Assembly: GCF_056712565.1 (NCBI RefSeq)
Contig: NZ_JBWXXM010000002.1
Source: a plasmid
Direction: 5' to 3' (one strand)
Length of the DNA stretch: 64,000 bases
A program made the position numbers. This document shows, one piece after another, positions 45,001 through 48,000 of this stretch (position 1 is its first letter; each line of letters starts with the position of its first letter).

Positions 45001-48000
45001 CATCGCTCAGACCGATGAATTTCCTTTGTTCCTTCGCTATTTCAGGTTGCACTGCCTGGAAAACAGCGAACATGTCAGTTACGAAAGACTGATCTGCTGG
45101 CAGGAAATGATTTCAAAAACCCAGGAAGGCCAGTCCTTGACACAAAACGAACTTGAATATCTTCATGAGATTGTCCGCATCGCCTTTTACAATCACCGGC
45201 TTAACAATGTCAGTATTTCAGATGTTAAAAACCATGACACTGGAAAGAAGAGCGGCAGGGTAGAGTCACAAAATTATTCACTTTTATAAATAACTTGGGC
45301 TTTGCGCATTAAACCCTTGCCGCAGGCGGTGTACCGCATATCCGGCACAGACAGTCAGTTTTTTCTGGCAGCTTAAATTTGACACTGCTTAATATAGTGA
45401 TTCATTAAACAGGTTCAGTATGCTGCCAGAACGTTTTAGTCGTAATGGGCGTCCGTTAGTTTTCAACTAACTGAACGACGACCAGCCTGCCGCCTTCCTC
45501 CTTTGACAGAACAAACTGAGCGTTATTCGTCAGTTCAATTTTTTCCCCAATGGCAATCTGTCGTTTATCCGGTAATGACATAAGCCCATTTATGCCTTCA
45601 TTTACTAACCACCACTGATCGTTATGGAAAACAAAATACCCAACTCGTTTCCTTTGTGCATCGGTTGTGCGCTCATTTGGCGCAATGAGGCGATTCACAT
45701 GCCACGCATAGATTGACTGCCCGCTCCACACCATCAACCGGTGGTCGTCAGGACGATAACTGCCTTCCTTTCGGGATGAATATAAATTTAGGGAAGGTGC
45801 GAACAAGTTCCTGATATGAGATCATCATATTCATCCGGAGCGCATCCCAGAGGGACATCATGAGCCATCAACTCACCTTCGCCGATAGTGAATTCAGCAC
45901 TAAGCGCCGTCAGACCCGAAAAGAGATTTTCCTCTCCCGCATGGAGCAGATTCTGCCATGGCAGAATATGACCGCTGTCATCGAGCCGTTTTATCCCAAG
46001 GCGGGCAATGGCCGACGGCCCTATCCGCTGGAGACCATGCTGCGTATTCACTGCATGCAGCATTGGTACAACCTGAGCGACGGTGCCATGGAAGATGCCC
46101 TGTACGAAATCGCCTCCATGCGCCTGTTTGCCCGATTATCCCTGGATAGCGCCCTGCCGGATCGCACCACTATCATGAATTTCCGCCACCTGCTCGAGCA
46201 GCATCAACTGGCCCGTCAATTGTTCAAGACCATCAATCGCTGGCTGGCCGAAGCAGGCGTCATGATGACCCAAGGCACTTTGGTGGATGCCACCATCATT
46301 GAGGCACCCAGCTCTACCAAGAACAAAGAGCAGCAACGCGATCCGGAGATGCATCAGACCAAGAAAGGCAATCAGTGGCACTTTGGCATGAAGGCCCACA
46401 TTGGTGTCGATGCCAAGAGTGGCCTGACCCACAGCCTGGTCACCACCGCGGCCAACGAGCATGACCTCAATCAGCTGGGTAATCTGCTTCATGGAGAGGA
46501 GCAATTTGTCTCAGCCGATGCCGGCTACCAAGGAGCGCCACAGCGCGAGGAGCTGGCCGAGGTGGATGTGGACTGGCTGATCGCCGAGCGTCCCGGCAAG
46601 GTAAAAACCTTGAAGCAGAATCCGCGCAAGAACAAAACGGCCATCAACATCGAATACATGAAAGCCAGCATCCGTGCCAGGGTGGAGCACCCGTTTCGCA
46701 TCATCAAGCGGCAGTTCGGCTTCGTGAAAGCCAGATACAAGGGGCTGCTGAAAAACGATAACCAACTGGCGATGTTATTCACCCTGGCCAACCTGTTTCG
46801 GGTGGACCAAATGATACGTCAGTGGGAGAGATCTCAGTAAAAACCGGAAATAACGCCAGAAATGGTGGAAAAAATAGCCTAAATAGGCTGATTCGATGTG
46901 TTTGCAGGAAAAAAATTGGCCCAGATCCGCGAAATTTTAATCAGCGAGTCAACTTGGGAAGAAATGACCTGCTTATTCGCACCTTCCTTAGAACCGGTAA
47001 TTTACCCTTGTATGGCGTACCGCAGTAGGGACAAACCGGCTTTGTCTTACCTGAGAAAACGTACCATTTCTGTTCACACGCCTTGTTCTGGCAGGGCTGT
47101 ATCAGATCGACTGTTTTAACCAGGGCACTTTCCCACTCATCGGCGGTCGGGCGTTTATTGGCATCGTGTAAGCCATCAATAAAGGCGCGTTCAAACAAAG
47201 GCGTCAAATAAGGGCCCATGATGGTGTAAGGAATTTTCTCCGGGTCAGCCCAGGGCAGTGAAAAGGAGGATAGCTGACTGACTTTGACTGCATTGCTTTT
47301 GTCTGTCGGATGTTCAATGAAGAGTGCCTTCTCACCCATAGATAAGGTCTCATCACGTACTTCATCCGACATGTCATGTATTTTTCCGCCACGTAGCGGA
47401 TGACGGAAGAACAGATACATGTAGATAAGCACCGACAGCGCATGACGGTCAGTAGAAATGCTTGGCAATACGCGGTTCGGATCCTCTTTGGAAAGATGGC
47501 TGGTTTTCACCACTTCCGGAGCGATAAAATCCGGGGTGCCCACGACGTCGGGAGGATACTTTCCAGGGACAACCAGGCCGTCTACGTCAATGATGCAGGC
47601 ATGTCCCATTTCTGGATCGATAAGCACGTTTTTATAGCTTAGATCGCTGTGACAGAGACCTGCCGCATGCATCCTTCTGACGGCTCTTGTTAGCAGCAGA
47701 CAGACCTTGAGATAGGTAAGCGTATTGCCTCGTTCACGTGGGTCGAGAAATTTATTCTGGTTGCTGGCGCTGGCAAACCATTTGCCTTCCTTTTCACGGC
47801 CTTTTATGCCAAGAAAATCATCGTTTTTAGAGCCGTATTTAAAGAAAAAGTAGCTTTTGTAGGTTGGAACCACGATGCCGATTTTATCCCCATGCTCAAC
47901 AACGTGGGTCGGCCAGCAAAACAGGTCCTTCCAGTATTCACCTCCGGACTGGCCAAAAATGTTTTGCCTGTAGCGTCCGGTGATCATATCAATCCGATCC

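Follow-up and report, generated by a model that had tools for sequence, protein, structure and literature searches.

The stretch analyzed here (the window: 64,000 nucleotides of the plasmid contig NZ_JBWXXM010000002.1) is a segment of an IncHI2 plasmid in which an AT-rich backbone is followed by a GC-richer island of ter genes, with an IS5-family insertion sequence (IS) close to the passage from one to the other. The locus raises the question of whether this IS has anything to do with the arrival of the ter genes. The first-pass annotation had placed a compositional boundary at 45.3-45.8 kb, had set the IS at the edge of the island, and had taken the contrast in composition as a sign that the island was acquired separately from the backbone. 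The separate origin of the island is upheld by the present comparison and the role of the IS is not: it is very probable that a foreign ter island sits on the IncHI2 backbone, and that the IS, an ISKpn26 element, entered a kinase gene of the island later, as an insertion private to this plasmid and unrelated to the acquisition. It is already established that a GC-richer ter block is found on AT-rich IncHI2 plasmids, and IS5-family insertion is routine. The main value of the analysis lies in the correction, as a private and recent IS is no landmark of island acquisition.

The closest relative of the window is the Salmonella Indiana plasmid pD90-1 (NZ_CP022451.1), which aligns collinearly with 99.98% identity over positions 914-45791 and 46988-64000. 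The two sequences are distinguished by one 1196-bp segment extra in the window and by an IS3-family element extra in pD90-1. The 1196-bp segment (45792-46987, plus strand) is a copy of ISKpn26. Its two ends form inverted repeats of 16 bp (GGAAGGTGCGAACAAG and GGAAGGTGCGAATAAG, 15/16 matching), and it encodes an IS5-family DDE transposase of 326 amino acids (45860-46840, plus strand; 367 bits for NF033581, cut-off 140; Pfam DDE_Tnp_1 with E = 8e-36, and DUF772). The whole element is 99.9% identical over 1196 bp to RefSeq copies annotated as ISKpn26, which served for the naming in place of the ISfinder reference. Both ends are flanked by the tetranucleotide TTAG (45788-45791 on the left, 46988-46991 on the right), which was read directly and over which the two pD90-1 alignments overlap by 4 nt. 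In pD90-1 the insertion site is uninterrupted and contains one TTAG. The duplicated sequence conforms to the Py-T-A-Pu target consensus of IS5 (PMC5493358).

The insertion point lies after codon 389 of the 499 codons of a TerY-P Ser/Thr kinase gene. An intact 1500-bp coding sequence for the 499-residue kinase crosses the site in pD90-1, 803-DB-mcr, pE1532-MCR, pCTX-M_SCLZS19, XJ6-3, p220k, and pEC21Z137-237K. In the window, the native 5' part of the gene occupies 46988-48155, and its reading frame runs 15 codons into the IS, giving a truncated open reading frame (ORF) of 404 residues (46941-48155, minus strand) composed of native residues 1-389 and the 15 IS-encoded residues RKVRISRSFLPKLTR. 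The 3' fragment, with residues 390-499 and an FHA-like domain, is found on the other side of the element (45456-45791, minus strand). The kinase gene, which had been placed at the start of the GC-richer sequence, has its 3' end at 45456, to the left of the IS, so that the interval flagged as the boundary consists mostly of kinase coding sequence and not of backbone. Nor is the IS at the island edge: it is located 497 bp inside the island, within coding sequence, has an intact duplication, and is absent from every relative examined.

The distribution of the insertion was followed in 72,556 PLSDB plasmids and 5,426 complete E. coli genomes. The 6 kb surrounding the site has matches in more than 1,000 IncHI2 plasmids of Escherichia, Salmonella, Enterobacter, and Klebsiella. 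At a coverage of 80% or more, an IS-free 8-kb query was recovered within one place in 1,072 PLSDB plasmids, and an IS-free 4-kb query in 276 complete E. coli genomes. When 160 bp bridging the IS/kinase junction were used as the query, neither collection returned a record spanning both sides. Since the junction is absent from both, the insertion appears to be recent and private to this plasmid lineage.

These data bear directly on the suggestion that the IS5 copy marks or mediated the acquisition of ter, for instance by forming one end of a composite transposon or by serving as the point of recombination between island and backbone. The IS is within 500 bp of the true junction, and ISs or their remnants do border the module elsewhere (an IS21 istA pseudogene in the O104:H4 chromosome, a truncated transposase in the GPEC484-624 chromosome). 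However, an element that interrupts a gene and has kept its direct duplications of 4 bp intact bears the mark of simple transposition into pre-existing DNA. The identical island with the identical junction is found without the IS in ~1,070 plasmids, and these uninterrupted sites refute such a role for this copy; the IS junction itself occurs in no other record of PLSDB or of the complete E. coli genomes. A composite transposon is bounded by two bracketing IS copies, and no second ISKpn26 copy is found in the 64-kb window (no repeat of 40 nt or longer involves the IS), the far end of the island being located beyond the window. A part for this IS in bringing the island is thus extremely improbable.

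The true left border of the island was located by comparison with plasmids and chromosomes that carry one of its two sides. The last backbone gene is a CoiA-like ORF of 360 residues (44207-45289, plus strand; Pfam CoiA_N with E = 6e-8; GC 0.462, and 0.457 at third codon positions, GC3). Its product is 74% identical, over the full length and to the last residue, to the orthologue in the IncHI1A plasmid pYPE10-190k-tetX4, and backbone homology extends through the stop codon at 45287-45289. Homology with the ter island of the E. coli GPEC484-624 chromosome (98.4% identity overall) begins at 45295, 6 nt past this stop codon. The interval between the end of backbone homology and the start of ter-module homology is thereby reduced to the 5 nt ATAAC (45290-45294), and the left coordinate of ~45.3 kb given in the first-pass annotation proves correct. 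Between the junction and the kinase stop there is a non-coding spacer of 161 nt (45295-45455), which travels with the ter module in one lineage, that of GPEC484-624. The spacer together with the kinase 3' end is 93% identical to that chromosome, with one 5-nt gap, and a truncated transposase is found there beyond the spacer-kinase sequence. The spacer is absent from the O104:H4 chromosome and from the plasmid pECO-109b, in which module homology starts at 45455. The GC content of 45290-45455 is 0.458. A scan for terminators and promoters round the junction gave one weak terminator-like hairpin (minus strand, 45316-45297) and nothing that defines the junction. The spacer also holds a 13-nt inverted repeat (45363-75 and 45419-31).

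In respect to base composition, the contrast between the two parts of the window is real and far above chance. GC and GC3 were calculated gene by gene, with the annotated genes of pD90-1 mapped onto the window. In the 41 genes that end to the left of 45.4 kb, GC is 0.401 ± 0.041 and GC3 0.364 ± 0.070; in the 17 genes or fragments from 46.99 kb on, the values are 0.523 ± 0.022 and 0.560 ± 0.033 (Mann-Whitney p ~3e-9 for GC and for GC3). A single-change-point likelihood-ratio statistic (twice the log-likelihood ratio, 2LLR) reaches 668 with the IS and 625 with the IS deleted, and the highest value in 200 shuffles of 100-bp blocks is 41.7. The proposed division into an AT-rich left and a right part rich in GC and GC3 holds at this scale, but intermediate values are found as early as in the genes at 39.0-45.3 kb (GC 0.39-0.48, GC3 0.38-0.53), and GC rises from ~0.36 to ~0.53 in two about equal steps, not in one. 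The 3-kb right-minus-left GC contrast shows equal maxima of +0.079 at ~38.5 kb and ~47.5 kb.

The single step proposed for 45.3-45.8 kb, coincident with the IS, is not observed. The maximum-likelihood cut is at 44,276, on a 2LLR plateau of 596-625 that extends over 44.0-47.2 kb, and with the IS deleted the 1-kb flanks of the true junction (45295) have nearly the same GC (0.464 on the left vs 0.472 on the right). In the raw sequence, GC goes from 0.451 in the 1 kb ahead of the IS to 0.553 in its first 1 kb; for the whole element the value is 0.534, and the GC3 of its transposase gene is 0.713. As no local step remains once this GC-rich element is deleted, the jump at ~45.8 kb is the composition of the IS itself. 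The mean GC of the island is ~0.52, while that of its outermost gene, the kinase, is only 0.478; with a low-GC gene at the outer edge, the composition ramps over ~44-48.5 kb instead of stepping. The lack of a step change in sliding-window GC had been named as the result that would speak against the boundary, and the outcome is divided: a broad ramp crosses 45.3-45.8 kb, but there is no local step in it. Composition alone is unable to place the junction of backbone and island.

A step of the same kind was observed at 38,400-39,100 (+0.08 GC, 3-kb flanks), in a part of the IncHI backbone whose gene order is shared with R27-like plasmids. Since a step of equal size occurs within syntenic backbone, composition steps alone are no marker of island borders here. 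The same fact can be taken further, to the view that the composition gap carries no horizontal signal at all and reflects functional or selective heterogeneity, with an H-NS-silenced AT-rich backbone set against expressed stress genes. A backbone GC that ranges from 0.32 to 0.48, with an equally large step at ~38.5-39 kb in R27-syntenic gene order, and a true junction without a local composition step both speak for this view. It is nevertheless quite improbable, as the module is present in some replicons and absent from others, and keeps its ends in five or more unrelated flanking contexts, which shows its mobility independently of composition.

Those contexts can be described in turn. The O104:H4 chromosome (98.9% identity) and pECO-109b (88.6%) both show homology from 45455, one nt outside the kinase stop. 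In pECO-109b, which is of the IncHI1A, pNDM-CIT-like type, the module lies beside a DsbA gene and a umuC remnant near transfer genes, with no CoiA-like neighbor; its flanks have a GC of ~0.49-0.50 and the ter part 0.51, values too close to tell whether the module there keeps its own GC or follows that of its surroundings. The IS21 istA pseudogene of the O104:H4 chromosome is separated from the kinase gene by 87 bp. The Klebsiella IncHI1B plasmids likewise have the kinase as the outermost gene, next to unrelated neighbors, and homology there (~71% identity) begins ~16 nt within the 3' end of the kinase gene. On the right, the module that pECO-109b shares ends at the stop codon of terF, as located in pD90-1. 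The module thus measures ~20 kb in the IS-free relatives (19,952 bp from kinase stop to terF stop in pD90-1), to which the 161-nt spacer is added. The different neighborhoods in pECO-109b, in the Klebsiella plasmids, and in chromosomes, taken with the composition, show that the module is foreign and repeatedly mobile. The island differs from the backbone in composition, is present in some relatives and absent from others, and has unrelated flanks with conserved ends. The claim that the ter region was acquired apart from the backbone is borne out by its absence from R27-like plasmids and its recurrence elsewhere, and the data support a separately acquired module, foreign to the AT-rich backbone, that has moved repeatedly.

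The left end at one and the same nucleotide in two modules as different as those of O104:H4 and pECO-109b (98.9% and 88.6% identity to the IncHI2 copy), and the right end at the terF stop, might also indicate a ~20-kb cassette moved by an unrecognised site-specific process, an idea to which we give little credence. No island integrase was found in the window, the recombinase nearby being a backbone gene, and a scan of the window for tRNA genes gave none. The search for repeats or att-like sites common to the two island ends gave only an 11-nt match (E = 0.02). This string, CTGGCAGCTTA, is located at 45365-45375, within one arm of the 13-nt inverted repeat of the spacer, and recurs ~550 bp past terF, to the right of the island (4380-4390 of the stretch compared in pD90-1); the match is probably due to chance. 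A 10-nt inverted repeat (45452-61 and 45465-74) straddles the shared module end at 45455.

The comparison with plasmids lacking ter was another of the approaches proposed beforehand, and it gave a mixed result. In two R27-like plasmids (pYPE10-190k-tetX4 and another) the recombinase, hha, and CoiA-like genes are present in the same order and ter genes are absent, so the CoiA-like side of the junction is shared, but replacement DNA is found beyond it. About 1.4 kb after the CoiA-like gene there is a gene which in IncHI2 is located to the right of terF (WP_000341067 in the R27-like plasmids, WP_000341066 in pD90-1; 90-94% DNA identity). A clean empty site was considered for these plasmids and rejected, the intervening 1.4 kb being unrelated to either IncHI2 junction.

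The R27-like locus opens the way to a different history, in which ter is ancestral to IncHI and was lost from the R27-like clade, the boundary being an old junction between two parts of the core. A published analysis reports that only the R27-like clade is without ter and that the ter tree mirrors the backbone tree, and favors ancient gain followed by loss (bioRxiv 10.1101/334409); the replacement, in the absence of a clean empty site, agrees with it. It is difficult to reconcile with the different neighborhood of the pECO-109b module (DsbA gene, umuC remnant), with the neighbors in Klebsiella IncHI1B, which are different again, with modules 98-99% identical in E. coli chromosomes, and with a composition far from that of the backbone. 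We regard an ancestral ter as possible, though clearly the less likely history; moreover, it would alter the date of the event and not the foreign nature of the module.

Several observations weigh against a foreign island followed by a late and private IS. The R27-like locus carries ~1.4 kb of unrelated DNA in place of the ter module with its spacer and another 1.9 kb, and because of this replacement the comparison alone cannot separate a gain in IncHI2 from a loss or replacement in the R27-like plasmids. The dinucleotide signature of short segments gives no clean split of island from backbone: the TerY-P part differs from backbone segments by a delta* (x1000) of 33-59, and the backbone segments differ from one another by 19-49. 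The timing of the insertion depends on its absence from two collections (PLSDB and the complete E. coli genomes).

With these points taken into account, the events may be reconstructed as follows. An AT-rich, compositionally uneven IncHI backbone extends up to the end of the CoiA-like gene at 45289, and the ter island begins 5-6 nt past this gene. A single ISKpn26 later transposed into TTAG in the kinase gene, as a simple insertion with a 4-bp duplication, and would have had no role in bringing the island to the plasmid. The effect of the insertion is expected to be confined to the kinase. Its position close to the junction would be explained by a stretch of dispensable genes that tolerates insertions.

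This last point is suggested by the neighborhood. Different IncHI2 plasmids have at least six independent IS insertions in or near 43,500-45,300 (the hha/CoiA-like stretch), no more than ~3 kb left of the junction. In relatives, the CoiA-like gene has been hit by IS66, IS100, or ISEc68, the space between hha and the recombinase gene has received ISVsa5 or IS5, and ISKpn26, an IS30-family element, and mcr-1 are found just beyond the recombinase. The stretch may either tolerate insertions or attract them as a hot zone. Two Enterobacter plasmids were candidates for an IS5 at the same site as in the window, the match lengths being similar; they were rejected, as the IS5 and ISEc68 that they carry occupy different sites.

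Alternatively, the nearness of the IS to the junction could follow from structural targeting, that is, from a preference of IS5-family elements for easily melted or curved DNA at a composition transition. Insertion hot spots of IS5 have been tied to regions destabilised by superhelical stress (SIDD regions) near Py-T-A-Pu sites (PMC5493358), and two of the at least six nearby insertions are of the IS5 family. On the other hand, five IS families are represented among the nearby insertions, which hit intergenic DNA or dispensable genes, as expected from tolerance, none of them is at the present site, and YTAR sites are ubiquitous, with one per 81 bp across the window and nine in the kinase gene. 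Structural targeting is therefore an unlikely explanation. Several IS families in dispensable DNA fit tolerance, and an IS near the junction is unsurprising.

The retained part of the kinase includes the kinase core (Pfam Pkinase at residues 151-269, E = 6e-10; matches to kinases of known structure in the PDB at residues 150-223) and a four-cysteine zinc ribbon, whose cysteines are invariant in an alignment of 40 homologues. The C-terminal region, including the lost 110 residues, is conserved in homologues down to 25% identity. The lost 110 residues gave no Pfam or NCBIfam match at E ≤0.01, and in structure prediction the C-terminal ~110 residues are modelled as an FHA-like beta-sandwich fold. 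On the strength of the model the C-terminus is described as FHA-like only: it has the predicted fold and falls outside the Pfam FHA profile. In current annotations the FHA-like domain of this TerY-P kinase is read as helix-hairpin-helix or as lipopolysaccharide (LPS) kinase. Judged from the reading frames, ISKpn26 splits the kinase core and zinc ribbon from the putative C-terminal FHA-like domain.

Polar effects on other genes are not expected, since the kinase gene closes its operon and the gene that follows is transcribed convergently. The ter genes (terZABCDE) are intact as far as the window reads, with terZABC running to its end. The disruption matters for the typing and phenotyping of this plasmid, and could affect tellurite, phage, and colicin phenotypes on the terWXY side. 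A further and rather improbable reading is that the kinase, once deprived of its FHA-like domain, is deregulated, alters ter-linked phenotypes, and was selected for. A protein from the Logan assemblies (P0048, 411 residues) is 99% identical over 57% of the kinase and truncated differently, hinting at an independent disruption of the same gene elsewhere.

The remaining genes of the window were assigned from the annotation of pD90-1. The left part comprises partition and transfer genes (parB, parM, htdA-type, trhF/U/N) together with many hypothetical genes, and is followed by a Tus-like gene, the tyrosine recombinase gene, hha, and the CoiA-like ORF. The tyrosine recombinase gene (42288-43463, minus strand; Pfam Phage_integrase with E = 2e-13) lies beside hha, at the same position as in R27-like IncHI1A plasmids without ter genes. 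Being shared with plasmids that lack ter, it is a backbone gene and not an island integrase. A 326-residue ORF at 40091-41071 was tried as the partner of the IS in a two-IS5 composite transposon and rejected: it is the Tus-like backbone gene, and no repeat ties it to the IS.

Further to the left, six ORFs of 173-318 residues (five of them of ~300) follow one another on the same strand at 31,900-37,506 without any Pfam family. In no other part of the window is the AT content so high (GC 0.33-0.39 in this run), and the last two ORFs (35440-36375 and 36550-37503) are the only detectable paralogues among the six (27% identity, E = 2e-37). The IS3-family element of pD90-1 maps at ~21,681-21,688 of the window, where the alignment blocks overlap by 8 nt, which suggests a target duplication in pD90-1.

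On the opposite strand, the island genes follow in the order kinase, PP2C phosphatase, vWA/TerY-C, vWA, TerD-family, vWA, terW, a biosynthetic block, and terZABC to the window end. The rest of the TerY-P/terXY block (48181-52884, minus strand; GC 0.48-0.54) codes for a PP2C phosphatase (Pfam PP2C_2, 1e-46), a vWA protein with TerY-C (TerY_C, 3e-53, and VWA), a vWA protein (VWA), a TerD-family protein (TerD, 1e-52), and another vWA protein (VWA). The region 53350-64000 (RefSeq annotation of pD90-1; GC 0.50-0.55, GC3 0.53-0.62) holds terW, biosynthetic genes of the nucleoside-metabolite type, and terZABC, and the island runs on past the window end.

In comparison with known systems, the element itself is ordinary. 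Its length, its 326-residue DDE transposase, the 16-bp inverted repeats, the 4-bp Py-T-A-Pu duplication, and the 99.9% identity are all those of ISKpn26/IS5, and the insertion site alone is particular. The kinase belongs to the TerY-P triad of Anantharaman, Iyer and Aravind 2012, with its zinc-ribbon-fused kinase, as summarised in PMC11090510 (eLife 2024). As in the triad, vWA/TerY-C, PP2C, and a kinase with a four-cysteine zinc ribbon are encoded by consecutive genes, here on the minus strand; a PADLOC scan of these genes matched no defence model and gave weak generic kinase matches only. For the C-terminal position of the kinase the literature gives a zinc ribbon or an OB fold (PMC11090510), whereas the kinase family of the window adds, after the zinc ribbon, the ~110-residue domain modelled as FHA-like, which is severed here by the IS.

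The E. coli chromosomal ter islands (O104:H4 2011C-3493, and the SpLE1 type of Shiga toxin-producing E. coli) have kinase, PP2C, and TerY genes 98-99% identical to those of the window, and the left end of the O104:H4 module falls exactly on nucleotide 45455. They differ in being carried on larger integrative elements beside IS remnants and in having no IncHI backbone. The nearest system is the ter cluster of IncHI2 plasmids (R478 type, terZABCDEF with terWXY). The IncHI2-borne type has been designated ter-type 2 (Nguyen et al. 2021; PMC8193136), and the TerZF/TerWY operon has been placed in the extended IncHI2 core (bioRxiv 10.1101/334409). The cluster of the window has the same gene order and near-identical sequence as in many IncHI2 plasmids, and is set apart from them by the ISKpn26 inside its terminal kinase gene.

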